From Flavobacteriales bacterium (GTDB lineage: Bacteria; Bacteroidota; Bacteroidia; Flavobacteriales; Flavobacteriaceae), in assembly GCA_038202695.1 (NCBI GenBank), contig JBBRET010000011.1, positions 6,544 to 70,543 of the forward strand: a stretch of DNA of 64,000 nt, in the 5' to 3' direction. The notes under the pieces were generated by a model. The model searched no databases. It was not told the origin of the DNA and saw nothing but the letters and a program-made list of their open reading frames with translations. The translations under genes were made by a program, and so were the position numbers. Each line of letters starts with the position of its first letter. The stretch's first letter is position 1. This document shows positions 8,731-17,787 of the stretch, piece by piece.

Positions 8731-9978
8731 ATGAAAAAAGACCAAAAACAAGCTGCGATAGGATTTATTTTTATCACGATGCTTATTGATATTACGGGTT
8801 GGGGAATCATCATTCCGGTGATACCCAAATTGATTGCGGAACTTATTCATGGCGACATCAGCGAAGCATCAAAATATGGAGGTTGGTTGACTTTTGCTTA
8901 TGCCATAACGCAATTCGTTTTTGCTCCATTAATTGGAAATTTAAGCGACAAATACGGTCGACGGCCCATAATCTTGATTTCGCTTTTTGCCTTTGCTTTA
9001 GACTATCTTTTATTGGCTTTTTCACCAACGATTATTTGGCTTTTTGTGGGAAGAATTATTGCAGGTTTAACAGGCGCAAGCATTACGACAGCATCTGCTT
9101 ATATTGCGGATGTTAGCACGCCCGAAAACAGAGCGAAAAACTTCGGAATGATTGGAGCTGCTTTTGGACTCGGATTTATTATTGGTCCAGTAATCGGTGG
9201 ATTATTGGGTCAGTTTGGCTCTAGAGTTCCTTTTTATGCTGCAGCAATTTTGTGTTTTTTAAACTTTTTATATGGTTATTTTATTTTACCAGAATCGCTG
9301 TCAAAAGAAAACAGAAGAACATTTGAATGGAAACGAGCCAATCCAATTACGGCAATTTCTAGATTGAAAAAGCATCCAACGTTACTAGGTTTAATTAGTG
9401 CCATATTTCTTCTCTATGTTGGTTCGCATGCTGTTCATAGCAATTGGAGTTTTTATACCATGTATCGTTTCAATTGGGACGAAAAAATGGTCGGAATCTC
9501 TCTAGGAGCAGTTGGGCTTTTGGTCGGAATTGTGCAAGGTGGATTAATCCGATGGACAAGTCCGAGATTAGGAAATGAAAAAAGCATTTACATTGGTTTA
9601 GCGCTTTACACTATCGGAATGTTACTTTTTGCTTTTGCGACCCAAAGTTGGATGATGTTTGTATTTTTAATTCCGTATTGTTTAGGAGGAATCGCTGGTC
9701 CGGCATTGCAAGCTACCGTTTCGTCAAAAGTTCCAGCAAATGAACAAGGAGAAATTCAAGGGACAATGGCGAGTTTAATGAGTGCTTCAGCGATTATTGG
9801 ACCTCCCTTAATGACCAATAGTTTTTACTATTTCACTCATGATGAAGCGCCATTCAAACTACCAGGAGCGCCATTTATTTTGGGAAGCATTTTGATGTTA
9901 GTGAGTACAGTTATTGCTTATTATTCACTCAAAAAACATTTTACTTCAAATACAAACAATGATTATAATAATCAATAA
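8731..9978 (+). CDS. MFS transporter, TetA/DHA1 (TCR/Tet) family
   Basis: Motif A ([13 protein letters not shown]) and motif C ([16 protein letters not shown]); about 12 TM segments. Confidence 0.9.
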
Positions 9979-10378
9979 TTGCTTTTCCTTCTAATAAAAT
10001 ATCGGCACCAATTATACCATGAACTGCCTTGGCTTTGTGTTGCTGCAATGCTTCATTTACATGTGTCATATCAAAAATAATCAACTGTAAATCAGTAGTC
10101 TTCCAGCGGCCAATTTGAAGCGAATTGTTCTTTGCTAATTGTGTAAACATTCCTGTAGCTCCAGCTCCAGCAGCTTTGGTTTTTGATTTTCCGGCCTTGA
10201 GATTAAAAAATTCAATGCCTTCAAAACCCACACAACTATTGGAAGCACCAGTATCTAAGATAAAATTCCCCAAAACGCCGTTAATAATAGCTTTAATCAA
10301 TAAATGCTGGGTTTTTGAAACTTTAAAACTAATTTTTTTATACTTTTCTTTTTTGAGAATGTCTTGAAGTTGTTTCAT
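9941..10378 (-). CDS. Retropepsin-like aspartic protease
   Basis: FILDTGAS catalytic motif and GIIGADIL; start placed at ATG 10378 (MKQLQ). Confidence 0.85.
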
Positions 10379-12950
10379 AAAATTTTCTGTAAAACAAAAA
10401 TAAAGCAATTAGGCAGATACCAATTAAAATATAGAGAAAATAATTGGGGGAAGCTTTCTTTTCTAGTGTACCATAATAGACAAACGAACTCCAATAATAA
10501 GGTGATTTTTTTGCGTTTGGAATTTTATCATCAGCTAAAAAATTAAGTTTAGCTTGATGATTTGCTTCAAAATAGGAATTCCCTTTTTTAATATTTTTAT
10601 AGAAATTCTCCATCACAACAGAAGTAGTATAATCGTTTACTTTCCACAATGAAAAAAGTAAATTTTGAGCTCCAGCAAACTGAAATCCACGGGCAATACT
10701 CATTGAACCCTCAGCTTTGTAAAGTTTTCCAATTCCGGTTTCGCAAGCACTTAAAACAACTAAATCAGGATTTATGTCAAGATTATACAACTCAGAATAC
10801 AAAATTTCTTGATCATAAAACTTGATGCTTGCTGGCTCAATTATGTCTCCCGAAGATGCATGAGTAGAAAGATGTAAAATGGAATAGTTGCCAGCATCTT
10901 TTTTAAAATTTGCAAATGTTGCTTTTTCTGAACTCAAATACTTTCCATCAAAATTGCTTTTTATTGCATCTCTTTCTTTTTTAGAGTAGGTCAATTCTAA
11001 ACTTGATTTTGCAAAAACAGGAAAAATTCCCAATACCGATTCGGTAGTTTTATGAAATGGTTTTTGTTCCAAATAAAACGAAGCAGCATTTGCATAACCA
11101 ATAGCATAATCATTAATCAAATAATGCATTTTGCCGAAATTAGTAGTAGAACTTCTCTCTGTGATCAAAGCCTCAAATGGCAGCATTGTCATCAAGCCAT
11201 CCGGAACGATAATGAGGTTTTTGTGATTGTTTTTTTTTGGTAATTTCAACACTTGATATGCAACATTTGAAAAAGTATTAAACGCAATTGGATTGTTAGA
11301 AATAGTAGTGGCATTATTAAAAAAATCAATAAACTGTACAATTTTTAGGGTCGCTGTATCGGTGTTGTTTACGGACTCTATTTTTATAGTTGAGTTTTCA
11401 ATAGTGAAAACGAAAAATTGTTCTTTACCGAAAAAATACTCTACAAACACAGCATTGTCTTTTTCTAATTTAGTATACAATTTACTTATTTCTACTTTCT
11501 TTTCAAATATTTTTGCCTCTTTAGATTTCAATAACAACATCAACTCATTTTGTTTTCTAATCGCTTCATTAATAATTGAAATATCCGCATTACCGAGGTT
11601 TTTTTGTTCTTTAATAATAGCAGTATTCCACTTTTGAAGTTGCACAATTATCAGTTTCTCATCTTTAGTTTGTGTTTTTGAATTGATTACACTTTGCTTC
11701 AAAATACCCGATTTTGTGGCTTCAGCGAGTTCGAATGCATTTTCAATATAAATTACATTCTTCTCTTTTTTATACAGGCTATAGTTAATAGAGATACATG
11801 CTTCTGTCCGATTTCGATTTCGAATTTGGTTAATTAATTTTGAATTTTCATACACCAATAGTGATTGAAATAAGTTTTCAATATGAAATGCAAGTTGATA
11901 ACTTTCTAAGGATTTTAGTGGTTGATTTTGGACTAAAAACAATTTAGCCTGCAAGTCTAAGGCATCCAATAAAACAGTCTCTGCATACAATTGATTTTTG
12001 TTGGGAAGAATTGTTTTTGCTTTTGAATAATTTGGAATTAAGATTTTAAAAACAGACTGTATAGTGATTTGAGTTTCTTCAAAATTTCTTTGTTGATAAT
12101 TCAGCTGAGCAATATCAATGTACAACTGCGCTTGTTTTCTGGGCTCAATAGTAGGTTGGCTGATGAAAATTTTCGAAGCTTTCTCCATATTAGAATTTGC
12201 CAAATCAAAATTTTGTTGTTGACTGTAAATTTTAGCTAAATTCCGATAAGCATTTGACAAAGTTTCCGATTGTTTTTTGTCGTTTTTTAATAAAGAAATT
12301 GAAGATAAAAAACATTTTTCTGCTAATTGAAAAGGATTGTCTTTTCTTGGCAAACCATTTCCTAACAACATATAATTTGCCCCTAAATTATTAAGTAAAA
12401 TTCCTTTTTGAATAGAAGTTAGTTTATCCCTTTTAACCGTTTTTTCTAGTAAAGTAATTGCTTCATTAACTCGTCCTGTGTTTTGATATACATTTGATAA
12501 ATTCAATACTGCAGCATATTTTTGTTGCTCGTTGTCTTCGATATTTGCGATGTAAAAATATTGCTTTATGGTATTTTCGGCACTGTCATAATCACCTATA
12601 ATCGTGTATAAATTTCCCAATGGTTGTAAACACGATTCAACGATAGTATAATTTTCTAACTCATTCTTTTGAAATAATTGCCACGCTTTTTCGTAACTTT
12701 TAATTGCTTTTTGAACATTTCCGAATTGATTTTGATAGTACGCTTTATTACAATTTAAAATTACAAGCGCCAGAAATTCTGATTTTGATTTAGGGGAAAT
12801 GTTTTTCTCAAATGTTTCTAATCGTTGTAAACTTTCCTCATTTGGGTGCGCAACAAAAGCATCAATAGAAGTATAAATTTTATCTTCCAAAGAATTACTT
12901 TGAGAAAAAGAAACAGTTGTAAAAAGGAAAAGGAGTAGAAGTTTATACAT
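10338..12950 (-). CDS. Exported TPR-CHAT (caspase-like) protease with C-terminal membrane anchor
   Basis: Signal peptide from ATG 12950 (MYKLLLLFLFTTVSFS-Q); TPR-like helices; CHAT motifs LIIVPDG, LHLSTHA (His), VLSACETG (Cys), FSLWKVND, SPYYWSSF; C-terminal TM segment NYFLYILIGICLIALFLFY. Confidence 0.9.
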   Translation of the reverse strand: MYKLLLLFLFTTVSFSQSNSLEDKIYTSIDAFVAHPNEESLQRLETFEKNISPKSKSEFLALVILNCNKAYYQNQFGNVQKAIKSYEKAWQLFQKNELENYTIVESCLQPLGNLYTIIGDYDSAENTIKQYFYIANIEDNEQQKYAAVLNLSNVYQNTGRVNEAITLLEKTVKRDKLTSIQKGILLNNLGANYMLLGNGLPRKDNPFQLAEKCFLSSISLLKNDKKQSETLSNAYRNLAKIYSQQQNFDLANSNMEKASKIFISQPTIEPRKQAQLYIDIAQLNYQQRNFEETQITIQSVFKILIPNYSKAKTILPNKNQLYAETVLLDALDLQAKLFLVQNQPLKSLESYQLAFHIENLFQSLLVYENSKLINQIRNRNRTEACISINYSLYKKEKNVIYIENAFELAEATKSGILKQSVINSKTQTKDEKLIIVQLQKWNTAIIKEQKNLGNADISIINEAIRKQNELMLLLKSKEAKIFEKKVEISKLYTKLEKDNAVFVEYFFGKEQFFVFTIENSTIKIESVNNTDTATLKIVQFIDFFNNATTISNNPIAFNTFSNVAYQVLKLPKKNNHKNLIIVPDGLMTMLPFEALITERSSTTNFGKMHYLINDYAIGYANAASFYLEQKPFHKTTESVLGIFPVFAKSSLELTYSKKERDAIKSNFDGKYLSSEKATFANFKKDAGNYSILHLSTHASSGDIIEPASIKFYDQEILYSELYNLDINPDLVVLSACETGIGKLYKAEGSMSIARGFQFAGAQNLLFSLWKVNDYTTSVVMENFYKNIKKGNSYFEANHQAKLNFLADDKIPNAKKSPYYWSSFVYYGTLEKKASPNYFLYILIGICLIALFLFYRKFYETTSRHSQKRKV

Positions 12951-12972
12951 CTTATTTACTTTTACTATGAAA

Positions 12973-14994
12973 TCAAAACTTCCAAATGGCATAAAATTGC
13001 CAATAATTAAAATCTTTTTCAAAGTTTAAATAATAACGGATCCCGAGACTTGGACCAATTCTTGCAAAACCTAAAGTGACGTCTGCAAAAACACTCGACT
13101 GCATTTTTTCGAAAGCATTCGTTTTTGATTTTTCAGAAGTGTCTTCTCGCAATGATGTAATTTCGTTTCCAGGTCTTGGTGGTGTTGTTGCGTCAAAAAT
13201 GGGTTCATAATATCTCTTGCTATTAGCGTTTTCAACGGTTTGACTTAATAACACTGAAAATTGTGGACCAACGCCAACGCCAACAAAATTATTAATGTTG
13301 TATCTAAGCGAAATAGGAACTATTTCAGCGATATTTTTTGTGGTTTTTGAACTCGAAGAAGTTTTGGAAAAGCCTGTGTCAAAAACAGTTCCGTTGTTTA
13401 AAATAATTGGCGGATTAAATTGCGTTTGTTGAAATGCAGTCTCACTTGAAAAACCACTTTCAAAATAGCTGTAATAAAGCTCGGATTGCCAATAGAAACG
13501 ATAGGATTTATAAGGTGAAATAGTTGCTCCTAAAAAATAGCTTTTTGAATTTTCTTGCTCTGAAAAAAGATTATAACCTGCACGAACACCAATAGAAATC
13601 CCTGGTTGGAATTTGGTAACGGCATAATTTGTAATTATAGGCTCATTTTTATCAAAAATAATGGCAGTGCGACTTATGGTTTTTTCTTTGTGAAAGTCTT
13701 TTGCAAATTTCATGGTATACTTTACAAAACCTTTTGTTGAATCACGTTCGGTAACATTTTTTTGATTGCTTCCTGGGACATATATATTTTTAAAGGTGAA
13801 ATGAATTTGTTTGGCTTTGATAATAGTATCGATGCAACTGTAGGTTACCTCTTCGCCTTTTGGGCAAATGGGGCATTTGGGATAACTATCGACAATTTTT
13901 AATGTTTTTTTATCAAACATATTCGGAATATCAGTCTCTAATCGTATCGTTTTTGCTGGACCTTCACCATCATTTTGAAACCTAGTTTTGAAGTTGATGG
14001 TTTTAAATCGTACTAATCGATAATTCATAAATGCCGCATTGCTCGACATTTTATTAGGATCATGTGAGGTTACAATTTCCATTTCAAGTGTTTTTTTTAC
14101 GTGTTTTTTTGAAGATCTATCTGGAATAAAAACGCCACGGATTCTGACTGTTGCCGAAGTGTCTTTTATCATTTGTGGTGTGGTTTTGAATGTAAAAAAA
14201 ACATTTCTAGACTCTTTAGAATTCATGCCGTCAAATTCAAAAACCTTAGAATTGCGAAATTGCAATTTACTTTCAGCCAATGTTAAATCTAAATTTTGGT
14301 CTTCTATATTATTTCGTTTTCTGGTGATAAAATAAGGTTCTAGTGAAGCTATATTTTCGTAAATTTCATTTTTGTAATCGACAGTAGCAATTAATTTATC
14401 TTGAATTTCTTTTTCGCCAAAATGAGTTCGAGTTTCTACTAATTTGAAGTTGTCGTTTTTGAATTCTATATCATTAAAAAACAAATACAATTTTCCGTTA
14501 GTTGTATATTCTAATGGGTTTTGGTATCGCAGAACTACTATCATTTCTTCATCGGGCAACGGTTCTCGATTGGCAAGTAGTTGTAAAGAAATAGAGTCGT
14601 TCAAGGTTGCAATATCATCAAGGTTTGTGTCTACAATTTCGTTTATTGCTACTGTTTTTGGTCGAGTGGCAGGAGGTTTTCCGTTGTCATAATTATTGGT
14701 AACACTCAAATTTACTTTAAAATCACCTGGTTTTTTATATTTTTTTTGAGGCGTTACTTTTTTACTAAACGTTCCATCTCCAAATTCCCAAAAAAATGAA
14801 TAATTGGCTTTTGGTGCACCAGCGACTTGATTTAAAGGTGGTGTTTGAGCTAGGAAATTAACGGTGTTCCCTTTTTTATCAAAGTTAATAGTGGCTTTTC
14901 TAGTAATCGTGTCTTTTACTTTGGTTTGACCAATTGTAGTTTCTGTAAATCCGAAAAATAAAACAGTAAATGAGATTAGTACTAAACTCTTCAT
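12973..14994 (-). CDS. PKD domain protein with Ig-like middle domains and a C-terminal beta-barrel-like region
   Basis: Signal peptide; PKD motif FFWEFGDG; SHDPN...RFQNDGEGPA Ig-like motif; C-terminal amphipathic strands ending YAIWKF. Confidence 0.7.
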   Translation of the reverse strand: MKSLVLISFTVLFFGFTETTIGQTKVKDTITRKATINFDKKGNTVNFLAQTPPLNQVAGAPKANYSFFWEFGDGTFSKKVTPQKKYKKPGDFKVNLSVTNNYDNGKPPATRPKTVAINEIVDTNLDDIATLNDSISLQLLANREPLPDEEMIVVLRYQNPLEYTTNGKLYLFFNDIEFKNDNFKLVETRTHFGEKEIQDKLIATVDYKNEIYENIASLEPYFITRKRNNIEDQNLDLTLAESKLQFRNSKVFEFDGMNSKESRNVFFTFKTTPQMIKDTSATVRIRGVFIPDRSSKKHVKKTLEMEIVTSHDPNKMSSNAAFMNYRLVRFKTINFKTRFQNDGEGPAKTIRLETDIPNMFDKKTLKIVDSYPKCPICPKGEEVTYSCIDTIIKAKQIHFTFKNIYVPGSNQKNVTERDSTKGFVKYTMKFAKDFHKEKTISRTAIIFDKNEPIITNYAVTKFQPGISIGVRAGYNLFSEQENSKSYFLGATISPYKSYRFYWQSELYYSYFESGFSSETAFQQTQFNPPIILNNGTVFDTGFSKTSSSSKTTKNIAEIVPISLRYNINNFVGVGVGPQFSVLLSQTVENANSKRYYEPIFDATTPPRPGNEITSLREDTSEKSKTNAFEKMQSSVFADVTLGFARIGPSLGIRYYLNFEKDFNYWQFYAIWKF

Positions 14995-15030
14995 AATCAG
15001 AAATTTTGGTTAGCCTTTATAAAATTAGCA

Positions 15031-15057
15031 AAAAGTGGTGAACAAGTCACCACTTTT
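15031..15057 (-). terminator. Hairpin terminator between the lipoprotein genes and the PKD-CHAT genes
   Basis: AAAAGTGGTGA-ACAAG-TCACCACTTTT perfect 11-bp inverted repeat; T-run on the minus strand. Confidence 0.7.
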
Positions 15058-15083: not shown

Positions 15084-16058
15084 TTACGGTAGGGCATTTA
15101 TAGCTGCTTTCATTTGTGTTTCAGAACCTAAAGTAGTTTCAGCGGTGGTAAAAGTGTAAACTCCATTGGCTGCTATTGTTGCTGATTTAATAGCATATCG
15201 GTATTGACCATTTTCTTCGGTTACAAATATGATGTGACAAGCTAGACCAATTGGAATTTGACCATAATGCTCACTAAAATAGGTTCCGTTAAAAGTGTCT
15301 AGCTTAGCTAATGAACTTCCTTCTCCGTCATAGTGTAAATAAATTGCACTGTTTTGAAAAGTATATCCCGTTGGTGCACCAGCTAAAATTGTAGTTTTTG
15401 GTCTTGGGTCACTATAAAATTTATCTACATTGGTCCATCCAAAATCATTTAGCGTTGCATAATAAGCTGCACCAGCACCTTGTCCTTCGCCAAATACTCC
15501 GCCTTGAGCTCCTGGATTGTCTTGTCTTGTCCAATCTAAGTTTCCGTCTACGTCAATTGCGCCATCCCAAAGAGACATTCCAGTTTGTAATCCGCCAGTA
15601 AGTGAAGCTGGAATGATTAATTGCATCGGGCAAGTAATATCAAGTTGAATGCCACCTTGTTTAGCATTAATGTAAAATTCGCCTCCTGATTTAATCAAAG
15701 TCATATCGCCATTTGGTAATTTTCCCATGGTTGTTTTATCAGTAACAAGCATTGTTCCTGCATCAAATACTTCGGCGTACTCAATATTTACTGTTCCCGT
15801 AACAGGATTTCCGTTTTTTGTCAAACAATTTCCATTGATGGTAAATTGAACGCCATTCGTTGTTGTAAAGGTTGTTTGACCATTTTCAGCAATTAAAGTA
15901 AAGTTTTGAGTGATGTTGTTTAATGCTTCATTTCTTAGTTGATACCATTGTCCAGTACTTGGTCTGTAATCTGGAGTTGAAGAATCGTCTGTACTACAAC
16001 TTGTTAAAGCTAATGAAGCTAAAATGATTAATCCGATGTTTTTTAAATTTGTTTTCAT
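15084..16058 (-). CDS. Hypothetical lipoprotein
   Basis: Lipobox LALTSC; beta-rich body. Confidence 0.75.
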   Translation of the reverse strand: MKTNLKNIGLIILASLALTSCSTDDSSTPDYRPSTGQWYQLRNEALNNITQNFTLIAENGQTTFTTTNGVQFTINGNCLTKNGNPVTGTVNIEYAEVFDAGTMLVTDKTTMGKLPNGDMTLIKSGGEFYINAKQGGIQLDITCPMQLIIPASLTGGLQTGMSLWDGAIDVDGNLDWTRQDNPGAQGGVFGEGQGAGAAYYATLNDFGWTNVDKFYSDPRPKTTILAGAPTGYTFQNSAIYLHYDGEGSSLAKLDTFNGTYFSEHYGQIPIGLACHIIFVTEENGQYRYAIKSATIAANGVYTFTTAETTLGSETQMKAAINALP

Positions 16059-16133: not shown

Positions 16134-16574
16134 TTAGAAGTAAAATACGCTAGGATTGCTAGTTACGCCAGTTGTCCCATTTGCATTTACTATTTCAACA
16201 GACCAGATAAAATTACACATATAAGGAGGTTTACAAGGTCCAGTAGGCTCACCTGCGATTGTGGTTTCAGTTAAATTGTCTACATCTTTTGTTATTATTG
16301 GTGCGTTTAATCTCATTGCTTGAGTGCCATTTTGTCCTTGCATTAGTTGCCATACTTTCAATCTGTAGGTTACATTAGTTCTTGGTTGTGGTACAACAGG
16401 TGTCCATCTAAAATTGATAGGTTGTGCAGCTTCATCTGCAGAAAATGATTTGCCGTTTGTTGGTGACACATTTTCAATTTTAGCAGTTGTTGTAGTTACT
16501 TCATCTTTAGTACAGCTTGTTAAAGCAATTGCTGTTAAAAATAATAATCCGATTTTTTTAATTGTAGTTTTCAT
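16134..16574 (-). CDS. Hypothetical small lipoprotein (single Ig/FN3-like domain)
   Basis: Lipobox IALTSC; FRWTPV...YRLKVWQ...IWSVE strand pattern; Cys pair CKPPYMC. Confidence 0.7.
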   Translation of the reverse strand: MKTTIKKIGLLFLTAIALTSCTKDEVTTTTAKIENVSPTNGKSFSADEAAQPINFRWTPVVPQPRTNVTYRLKVWQLMQGQNGTQAMRLNAPIITKDVDNLTETTIAGEPTGPCKPPYMCNFIWSVEIVNANGTTGVTSNPSVFYF

Positions 16575-16621
16575 GATTTCTAAGTTTTTATAGTTGTTAA
16601 ATTTTTTGTTTTATATAGTTA
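16567..16621 (-). repeat. Duplicated 5' leader, copy 1
   Basis: 55 bp identical to 16984-17037 except for one extra T in a homopolymer. Confidence 0.95.
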
Positions 16622-16649
16622 TATTAAGTTAGGGTTGATTTTGTTACCT
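16622..16649 (-). promoter_or_regulatory. Putative ECF-sigma promoter GGTAAC-N16-TAATAT
   Basis: Same motif and spacing at 17037-17064 and 17133-17160. Confidence 0.6.
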
Positions 16650-16661
16650 ATGTTTTTGAAT

Positions 16662-16991
16662 TTATACTTTTTTATTTGCTTTTATATCATACTTTGCTCT
16701 AAAAGGTTTACCACTTTTTACAAGATTTTTAGGTGGAAAAGGATTTCCATCATCTTGACCATTTGGTCTTGTAGTTCTTTCATTAGTTTGGTTGCTTTTG
16801 GTTCTAGTTTTTAATCCATCCTGTTCTACAGGTTCTGATTTAACCACGGTTTCAACTTGAGTTGTTTGAGTTTGCGCAACTCCTACCGTTTGGTTTTCTT
16901 CTTGAGCAAAACCAACTGTTGTTGCTAATACTAAAAGAAGGTAAAATTTACTAATTGTGTTTTTTTCTGTGTTTTGTTTTACTGTTTTCAT
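16662..16991 (-). CDS. Small exported low-complexity protein / putative peptide precursor
   Basis: Signal peptide ending GFA-Q; 109 aa, polar, apparently unstructured mature part. Confidence 0.65.
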   Translation of the reverse strand: MKTVKQNTEKNTISKFYLLLVLATTVGFAQEENQTVGVAQTQTTQVETVVKSEPVEQDGLKTRTKSNQTNERTTRPNGQDDGNPFPPKNLVKSGKPFRAKYDIKANKKV

Positions 16992-17037
16992 GATTTCTAA
17001 GTTTTTATAGTTGTTAAATTTTTGTTTTATATAGTTA
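16984..17037 (-). repeat. Duplicated 5' leader, copy 2
   Basis: 54-bp direct repeat of 16567-16621, including the ATGAAAAC start. Confidence 0.95.
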
Positions 17038-17064
17038 TATCAATTCGTGTTGTAATTTGTTACC
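17037..17064 (-). promoter_or_regulatory. Putative ECF-sigma promoter GGTAAC-N16-TGATAT
   Basis: Minus strand reads GGGTAACAAATTACAACACGAATTGATATAAC. Confidence 0.6.
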
Positions 17065-17132
17065 CTTAAATTTGATTTTATTTCAAATTCTTTTTTTTCA
17101 ATTTCAACCTTTACTGAAGAACTTACATTGAT

Positions 17133-17160
17133 ATATAAATTGTGTTACCCATTTGTTACC
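17133..17160 (-). promoter_or_regulatory. Putative ECF-sigma promoter GGTAAC-N16-TTATAT, with a second GGGTAAC 11 bp away
   Basis: Minus strand reads GGGGTAACAAATGGGTAACACAATTTATATATC. Confidence 0.5.
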
Positions 17161-17205
17161 CCATTTCTATATTTATTTTTAAATTAGCCCATAAATAAGG
17201 TAGTT

Positions 17206-17787
17206 ATGGCAGAAAAAAGCGCACATCCAGATCAAATCTATATTGATGGATTAGTTCAAAACAATTCCGGTATCATACAATCTATATATAAGAAGTTCGC
17301 GCCTAAAGTGAAGAATTACATCCGCACAAACAGTGGAGATGACGATCAGGCACAAGATGTTATTCAGGAAGTATTAATTACAATATATGATCAAGCTAAA
17401 ACTAAAGGGTTGCAATTAACATGTCCATTTGACGCTTACTTTTTTCTATTGTGTAAAAGGCGTTGGTTAAACGAAATCAAAAAATCTTCCAATAAAGAGG
17501 TAACATTACAGGATGAAAATGTATCTATAGATGAATCTGTTCAAGAAATGGCATTCCAAACCGAAGCTTTTGACGAAAAACAATCCTTATTTGATGAGAT
17601 GTTTCAAAAATTAGGCGATAAGTGTCAAGAAGTACTCAAACTTAGTTTTGTCACCAAAACGATGGAAGAGGTTGCTGCCAAATTGAACGTAACTTATGCT
17701 TATGTGAGAAAGAAAAAATCACTTTGCACAGGTCAGTTGACAGAATTAATTCAACAATCTAATCGATACAACCTATTAAAACAGTAA
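17206..17787 (+). CDS. ECF-type RNA polymerase sigma-70 factor
   Basis: 193 aa with only region 2 (AQDVIQEV...RRWLNEIK) and region 4 (LGDKCQEVL...TMEEVAAKLNV). Confidence 0.9.
   Translation: MAEKSAHPDQIYIDGLVQNNSGIIQSIYKKFAPKVKNYIRTNSGDDDQAQDVIQEVLITIYDQAKTKGLQLTCPFDAYFFLLCKRRWLNEIKKSSNKEVTLQDENVSIDESVQEMAFQTEAFDEKQSLFDEMFQKLGDKCQEVLKLSFVTKTMEEVAAKLNVTYAYVRKKKSLCTGQLTELIQQSNRYNLLKQ

Follow-up and report, generated by a model that had tools for sequence, protein, structure and literature searches.

The promoters of the Bacillus subtilis sigma factors sigma-W, sigma-X, and sigma-M read TGAAAC/TGTAAC-N16-17-CGTA/CGAC, and that of Escherichia coli sigma-E reads GGAACTT-N16-TCTRA. Here, we analyzed a candidate promoter motif of this extracytoplasmic function (ECF) type, GGTAAC-N16-TNATAT, which is present in three copies beside an ECF sigma factor gene in a 64,000-nucleotide (nt) stretch of a Flavobacteriaceae genome (contig JBBRET010000011.1, positions 6,544 to 70,543, of assembly GCA_038202695.1, which comprises 2.86 Mb in 76 contigs at 34.7% GC). 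We refer to this stretch as the window and to its positions by their number within it. The original prediction, made from the letters of the window, held that the three copies represent the cognate promoter of the adjacent sigma factor. ECF promoters are typically recognized by AAC in the -35 element and CGT in the -10 element (PMC8103513). Like classical ECF promoters, the motif has AAC in its -35 element, a spacer fixed at 16 nt but free in sequence, an adjacent sigma/anti-sigma pair, and local targets. Unlike them, it has a -10 element TGATATA (core AT[A/C]TA) that lacks CGT and a -35 element extended to gGGTAACAA, and no copy is found upstream of the sigma gene.

In E. coli rpoE-rseABC, a second conserved sigma-E promoter located upstream of rseA leads to negative feedback (PMC1312014). 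The locus studied here resembles this arrangement in that a candidate sigma-dependent promoter is placed so that transcription would cover the anti-sigma gene but not the full sigma gene. It differs in that only the internal promoter is present, the upstream autoregulatory one being replaced by a housekeeping-like TAnnTTAG box, and in that the internal site lies in the middle of the gene, in the codons of the sigma2-sigma4 linker, about 260 nt before the anti-sigma start.

The closest characterized ECF system tied to TPR-CHAT is DdvS/DdvA of Myxococcus xanthus, which consists of an ECF sigma factor and a transmembrane TPR-CHAT anti-sigma factor, with DdvS-dependent promoters P1 to P4 distributed across one locus (PMC11506125). 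Both systems associate an ECF sigma factor with TPR-CHAT and have several cognate promoters, predicted ones in our case, in a single locus. In the window, however, TPR-CHAT is a separate exported protein whose motif-free gene lies beyond a terminator, and the anti-sigma factor harbors TPR only. Furthermore, the predicted targets are lipoproteins and small secreted proteins, whereas those of DdvS are CBASS/CRISPR defense genes, and the region upstream of the sigma gene does not appear to mediate autoregulation. We found no mention of CHAT or TPR contexts in the ECF reclassification paper.

Within the same bacterial family, the start-site map of Flavobacterium psychrophilum distinguishes promoter classes SM1 to SM6, of which SM6, with a CGT -10 element, is the single ECF-type class, and the flavobacterial housekeeping -7 box is TAnnTTTG (PMC9723704). 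Housekeeping promoters of the TAnnTTTG type are common to both cases, but we found no GGTAACAA/TGATAT class among the published flavobacterial classes. Our literature search returned no description of the GGTAACAA/TGATAT motif and no published start-site map covering an orthologous locus. The ECF promoter type is a known one, and what would be new is the cognate promoter of an uncharacterized ECF group.

Three motif copies and their conservation

We consider it very probable that RNA polymerase loaded with the adjacent ECF sigma factor recognizes the three sites, all on the minus strand, as promoters. The gene for this factor (17206-17787, plus strand) encodes 193 amino acids (aa) matching Sigma70_r2 (27.9 bits; cut-off, 24) and TIGR02937 sigma70-ECF (54.7 bits; cut-off, 42.9). 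Pattern matching recovered every predicted copy, and one set of coordinates had to be corrected, from 16622-16649 to 16621-16648. To score the sites, we used a matrix built from 33 orthologous sites of 11 congeneric loci. The copy nearest to the sigma gene, GGTAAC-aaatgggtaacacaat-TTATAT (17133-17160; 27.4 bits), is composed of GGTAAC at 17160-17155, a 16-nt spacer, and TTATAT at 17138-17133. Its position is conserved: it is orthologous to a family-wide "first site" located about 45 to 60 nt from the sigma start codon. Because no open reading frame (ORF) precedes the next copy, we read it as acting as a tandem upstream promoter. That next copy, GGTAAC-aaattacaacacgaat-TGATAT (17037-17064), is the best of the three with 38.2 bits and lies 45 nt upstream of the ATG (16991) of a gene encoding a 109-aa secreted protein. 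It has a conserved tAtAA 6 to 10 nt past the -10 hexamer, and its transcription start is predicted near A17030/A17028. The third copy, GGTAAC-aaaatcaaccctaact-TAATAT (16621-16648; 26.6 bits), is found 46 nt upstream of the ATG (16574) of a 146-aa lipoprotein gene and contains CCC in its spacer, as do orthologous "second-class" sites.

The pattern is far more frequent at this locus than expected. In the window, 0.04 occurrences of GGTAAC-N16-TNATAT were expected and 3 were found, a number reached in none of 100 dinucleotide-preserving shuffles. When the whole assembly was scanned, three of the four exact matches were at this locus, as were all three matches to the stricter pattern GGTAACAAA-N13-TNATAT. 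With the matrix, the next-best position in the genome scored 13.3 bits, compared to 38.2, 27.4, and 26.6 bits for the window copies. It had also been claimed that the sites do not resemble the housekeeping promoter, and indeed, no TAnnTTTG box occurs on the minus strand in 16575-16661 or 16992-17205. A scan of these intergenic regions with the classical sigma-70 consensus gave nothing meaningful.

Two peculiarities of the window copies were observed. First, in this genome only, the -35 word of the copy at 17133-17160 is doubled in tandem, AAATGGGGTAAC AAATGGGTAAC (17144-17160, minus strand). The second GGTAAC (17149-17144) was rejected as a separate promoter, since TGTAAG stands in place of the hexamer at N16. 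Second, the unrelated 109-aa and 146-aa genes have in common a near-identical leader of about 55 nt plus start codon (16567-16620 and 16984-17036). The identity between the copies at 16621-16648 and 17037-17064 runs from the -10 hexamer to past the ATG, and the spacers alone have diverged, which points to promoter and leader having been duplicated locally or copied by gene conversion.

To derive the consensus, we collected every GGTAAC from the divergent intergenic stretches at the 11 congeneric loci, so that the 33 sites were chosen on six bases only. The resulting logo has two A-tracts upstream of the -35 element, at -18 to -13 and -8 to -4, which are a phased pair. The -35 element itself consists of a G at position 0, GGTAAC, and an invariant AA at +7/+8. 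It is followed by eleven poorly conserved spacer positions (9-19) and by a -10 region A-n-TTGATATA at +20 to +29, in which A25, T26, and T28 are present in 33/33 sites. The word GGTAACAA is invariant in all 33 congeneric sites and in 29 other genera. The notion of a spacer fixed in length and varying in sequence held throughout the congeneric set, with exactly 16 nt in 33/33 sites and low spacer information. The -10 element originally given as TNATAT, on the other hand, could be refined to TGATAT(A), with GTATCT and TTATCT occurring as variants and AT[A/C]TA as the core that they share. Against this consensus, the window copies with TTATAT and TAATAT are weaker variants, and GTATAT, GTATCT, TGATCT, and ACATCT were all found as -10 variants directly before genes. 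The TCTRA -10 element of E. coli sigma-E is similar to the T[A/C]TA core, also in how far it lies from AAC, a similarity that we regard as a lead. Finally, the tAtAA located 6 to 10 nt beyond the -10 element is conserved in the congeneric sites, and transcription probably starts there, since this position fits that of an ECF start site.

A comparison of orthologous loci, suggested as a check of the original prediction, recovered the same bipartite architecture in the congeners and in other genera: copies of gGGTAACAA-N14-TGATATA are present at each of the loci from 10 congeners and from 29 other genera. All copies point away from the sigma gene and are co-directional with the next gene, usually 30 to 90 nt before its ATG. 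The genes downstream encode secreted proteins and lipoproteins. In the 29 other genera, one copy is located about 45 nt from the sigma start and before a gene for a secreted protein of about 145 aa, and a second one precedes a lipoprotein gene of about 325 aa. In other genera (loci L030 to L052, e.g., L030:2668-2705; L014/G023), the copy before this lipoprotein gene lies inside a strong palindrome, ACAGGGTAAC-N6-GTTGCCCTGT, with a folding free energy of -14 to -22 kcal/mol and the -35 box as its 5' arm. The arms covary, being CAGGG/CCCTG in some genomes and CTGGG/CCCAG in others, and a remnant of the palindrome is found in the window at 16621-16648. The palindrome could be the terminator of the upstream gene overlapping the lipoprotein promoter, or an operator.

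We then asked where sigma gene and motif occur together. Full-length orthologues of the sigma factor were found in 10 of the 36 congeneric genomes sampled (65 to 89% identity) and in 45 of 300 other Flavobacteriaceae genera, each represented by one genome, and there was none in 24 genomes from other families of the order. Using the pattern GGTAACAA-N14-TNATAT, the motif was detected in 11/11 sigma-positive versus 1/25 sigma-negative genomes of the genus. In the family sample, at least one copy was present in 41/46 sigma-positive versus 43/255 sigma-negative genomes, and at least two copies were present in 33/46 versus 7/255. The matches in sigma-negative genomes of the family were mostly single and as frequent as those of a reversed-pattern control, which corresponds to chance level. 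Among the five sigma-positive genomes without an exact match, three have variant copies such as GGTAACAAAA-N12-GTATCT. The presence of the gene is patchy and the motif always follows it, a pattern that is hard to explain otherwise.

The sigma operon and a fourth copy inside the sigma gene

The sigma gene is followed by a gene for a putative transmembrane anti-sigma factor of 238 aa (17792-18508, plus strand), which begins 4 nt past the sigma stop; this adjacency is kept in all loci. The protein has one transmembrane segment and a periplasmic TPR region (TPR_19 match), and its matches to anti-sigma families are weak (E value of about 0.002) and do not reach the cut-off. A terminator search placed a strong intrinsic terminator at 18533-18563 (plus strand), closing the sigma/anti-sigma operon.

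No motif was found upstream of the sigma gene on its sense strand: over 350 nt, the best matrix score was negative in 39/39 loci, with a median of -16.8. On the divergent strand, the median score of these loci was 30.7. The region harbors a TAAATTAG box (17180-17187, plus strand), located 19 to 26 nt before the sigma ATG and one mismatch away from TAnnTTTG, and a TAnnTT[A/C]G box is present 23 to 35 nt before the sigma ATG in 36/39 loci. Positive autoregulation of the sigma factor therefore seems unlikely, because its gene is preceded by a housekeeping-like TAnnTTAG box instead of the motif. The TAAATTAG box probably represents a constitutive, housekeeping-type promoter of the sigma operon. 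This assignment is tentative, since no -33 TTG was seen by inspection at the usual 17- to 23-nt spacing from the TAnnTTAG box. The box and the -35 element of the first divergent promoter are about 20 nt apart and back-to-back, and one may speculate about polymerase interference between the two promoters. In one congener (L016, G027), the sigma orthologue contains an in-frame TAG stop after ...ETEVQD, and the motif copies are still there; the stop may mark a pseudogene or stem from a sequencing error.

A fourth copy of the motif, GGTAAC-attacaggatgaaaat-GTATCT (17499-17526, plus strand), is located on the coding strand within the sigma gene, in codons 98 to 107, which belong to the variable sigma2-sigma4 linker. 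It is the best matrix match within the sigma gene in 39/39 orthologues and is always found at the same position (nt 293; nt 290 in two loci), with exactly the spacing of the intergenic sites. In other genera, its hexamer is mostly TTATCT or TTATAT. The constraint on this copy acts on the DNA: with the codons of the 39 orthologues aligned, the third positions of codons 98, 99, 100, 106, and 107 are invariant, and a third-position entropy below 0.2 is reached in just 11 of 193 columns, 5 of which are motif codons. Codon 98 keeps its G ending across E, G, and Q, and this in an AT-rich clade. Similarly, codon 106 keeps its A ending across six different amino acids, and L, V, I, A, and P are among the changes seen in motif codons. 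At codon 107, TCT gives way to TAT where tyrosine replaces serine, a replacement that makes the hexamer TTATAT and thus brings it nearer to the consensus. Given this pattern, the intragenic copy is probably a weak cognate promoter, from which transcription would run through the 3' portion of the sigma gene and through the anti-sigma gene and stop at the terminator (18533-18563).

A different explanation, which we judge rather unlikely but deserving of attention, is that GGTAAC...ATCT is no promoter and reflects codon preference, an mRNA feature, or a protein constraint. Its location in coding sequence would suit this view, and the V-T and S residues encoded there are conserved, but what is invariant at the motif codons is the third position, in a gene with few columns so constrained, and the endings of codons 98 and 106 persist across differing amino acids. 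The S-to-Y replacement likewise moves the hexamer toward the consensus rather than away from it. The -10 element is off consensus and the score is low, which is in line with a non-promoter role; however, the spacing is precisely that of the intergenic sites, and some intergenic copies directly before genes have GTATCT or ACATCT as well.

Competing explanations and the proposed circuit

The proposal that the sites are the cognate promoter of the adjacent sigma factor is supported by their conservation, by their co-orientation with genes, and by their co-occurrence with the sigma gene across genomes. Several points weigh against it. CGT, typical of ECF promoters (PMC8103513), is found in the -10 element of no site, neither in the congeners nor in the 29 other genera. 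The lack of a copy before the sigma gene is atypical of ECF systems and takes away the argument commonly made from autoregulation. The intragenic copy reaches 8.6 bits here, and its median score is 10.7 bits. Within this genome, the copies at 16621-16648 and 17037-17064 are paralogous and not independent. Since they share a duplicated leader, independence has to come from the comparison across species. There, the genomes are related, so that the Fisher P value of the association in the family sample (1.3e-21) overstates independence.

Two other explanations for the motif appear to us very unlikely. According to the first, it is the operator of a DNA-binding regulator other than a sigma factor, i.e., a repressor or an activator controlling the same genes. 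The palindrome with its covarying arms in other genera would suit a dimeric binding protein, but the first-class sites have no palindrome, and the motif itself is asymmetric and bipartite, with a promoter-like geometry and a strict co-orientation with genes. Moreover, the sigma factor is the only DNA-binding protein encoded at the conserved locus. The second, which we find no more credible, is that the promoters serve another alternative sigma factor, whose gene lies elsewhere in the genome. Flavobacteria possess several ECF sigma factors whose regulons may overlap (PMC9723704), and the tie between protein and DNA proposed here comes from sequence comparison. Such a factor would nevertheless have to be reconciled with the chance frequency of the motif in the 255 family genomes and 25 congeners devoid of the sigma gene, with its clustering beside this gene wherever the gene is present, and with the copy carried within its coding sequence in 39/39 orthologues. 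A further reading, in which the sites arose in AT-rich intergenic DNA by chance similarity or by a local duplication without function, is suggested by the duplicated 55-nt leader of two copies and by the ease of finding TNATAT at 35% GC. It has a negligible probability in view of the window and genome statistics and is effectively refuted by the comparative data, the motif being kept across 40 genera while the spacer sequence turns over.

Taking the three sites as promoters of the adjacent sigma factor, we propose the following circuit. A housekeeping-type TAnnTTAG promoter would produce the sigma/anti-sigma operon constitutively, and the sigma factor would be kept inactive by the transmembrane TPR anti-sigma factor. 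Upon an envelope signal, the sigma factor would be released and the divergent promoter array would fire, driving expression of the 109-aa, 146-aa, and 324-aa secreted-protein and lipoprotein genes up to a conserved terminator. The weaker intragenic copy would in turn transcribe the anti-sigma gene, resulting in negative feedback without positive autoregulation.

We further hypothesize, with our confidence evenly split, that this circuit is family wide and devoid of any positive autoregulation. Its sole cognate promoter on the sigma strand would be embedded in the linker codons and would drive the anti-sigma gene, a pure negative-feedback and pulse-generating design, and the -35 box before the lipoprotein gene, which in many genera doubles as the 5' arm of a covarying hairpin, could be part of a terminator of the upstream gene. 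If this is true, an intragenic promoter has, in no fewer than 40 genera, constrained the choice of codons and even of amino acids (S to Y, E to G). Negative feedback from a promoter inside the gene, with no positive autoregulation, would be an uncommon circuit detail, and the site would be an example of a regulatory element embedded in, and constraining, the coding sequence of its own regulator. The motif also provides a precise promoter definition, gGGTAACAA-N14-TGATATA, for an uncharacterized ECF sigma factor present in about one-seventh of the Flavobacteriaceae genera. This group would escape pipelines that search for ECF promoters upstream of the sigma gene. In addition, the compact trio of promoter, sigma factor, and anti-sigma factor might be used in Bacteroidota as an orthogonal expression switch.

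Predicted target genes, neighboring genes, and regulon extent

The first predicted target is the gene for the 109-aa secreted protein (16662-16991, minus strand), which is of low complexity and poorly conserved between species. ORF and locus comparison identified the 146-aa lipoprotein gene (16134-16574, minus strand) as the second one. The 324-aa lipoprotein gene that follows (15084-16058, minus strand) is the only target shared by all loci examined. In this genome, it lacks its own motif copy and is presumably cotranscribed from the site at 16621-16648. No sequence match to the 324-aa lipoprotein was found in Pfam, NCBIfam, PADLOC, or PDB. Its AlphaFold model is of moderate quality (predicted local distance difference test score, 69.8) and contains beta-sandwich domains only, which match generic beta-sandwich/CBM20-like domains with a template modeling (TM) score of about 0.22. 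An intrinsic terminator, consisting of the hairpin AAAAGTGGTGAcTTGtTCACCACTTTT plus a T run (15031-15057, minus strand), is located after the 324-aa gene and would end the sigma-driven units. This hairpin (15057-15031) is kept in 11/11 congeners, with changes in the arms that preserve pairing.

Beyond the terminator lie conserved neighbors (9941-14994, minus strand) that encode a PKD/DUF7619/DUF7849 protein, a TPR-CHAT protease, and a small aspartic protease, so that the sigma factor adjoins a periplasmic caspase-like TPR-CHAT protease module. The CHAT protein is a separate protein of 894 aa (10338-13022). We found no motif copy at these genes in any genome read, and a TAnnTTTA box precedes them in the intergenic stretch 14995-15030. 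They look like a separate unit, perhaps a constitutive one, that is not driven by the ECF motif. With a terminator and motif-free genes beyond it, the output of the sigma factor probably consists of the small secreted proteins and the lipoprotein, and a role of the CHAT module as sensor or processing machinery fits better than one as a target. The motif would thereby separate likely outputs (secreted proteins and the beta-sandwich lipoprotein) from the likely constitutive PKD-barrel, CHAT, and aspartic protease genes, leaving fewer genes to assay for signal and function. As to a defense-system reading of the locus, PADLOC returned nothing beyond a generic TPR match and, for the aspartic protease, weak matches to candidate families.

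The motif had also been put forward as a search string for the regulon. Scanning this genome with the pattern or with the matrix added no gene outside the locus, and the regulon thus appears to be local. In some congeners, by contrast, the search did retrieve additional genes: five of the six off-locus matches are located upstream of, and co-oriented with, genes for secreted proteins, and they include two orthologous gene pairs. These genes are possible extra regulon members, absent from the motif set of this genome, which suggests that the regulon can extend beyond the locus in some species. The off-locus copies (loci L024/L027 [G012, G008], L028/L029 [G030, G027], and L025 [G006]) precede genes for a protein of about 520 aa, for a protein of about 474 aa with a repeat-like GTxCW...WGWGxNGxLG N terminus, and for a protein of 265 aa.

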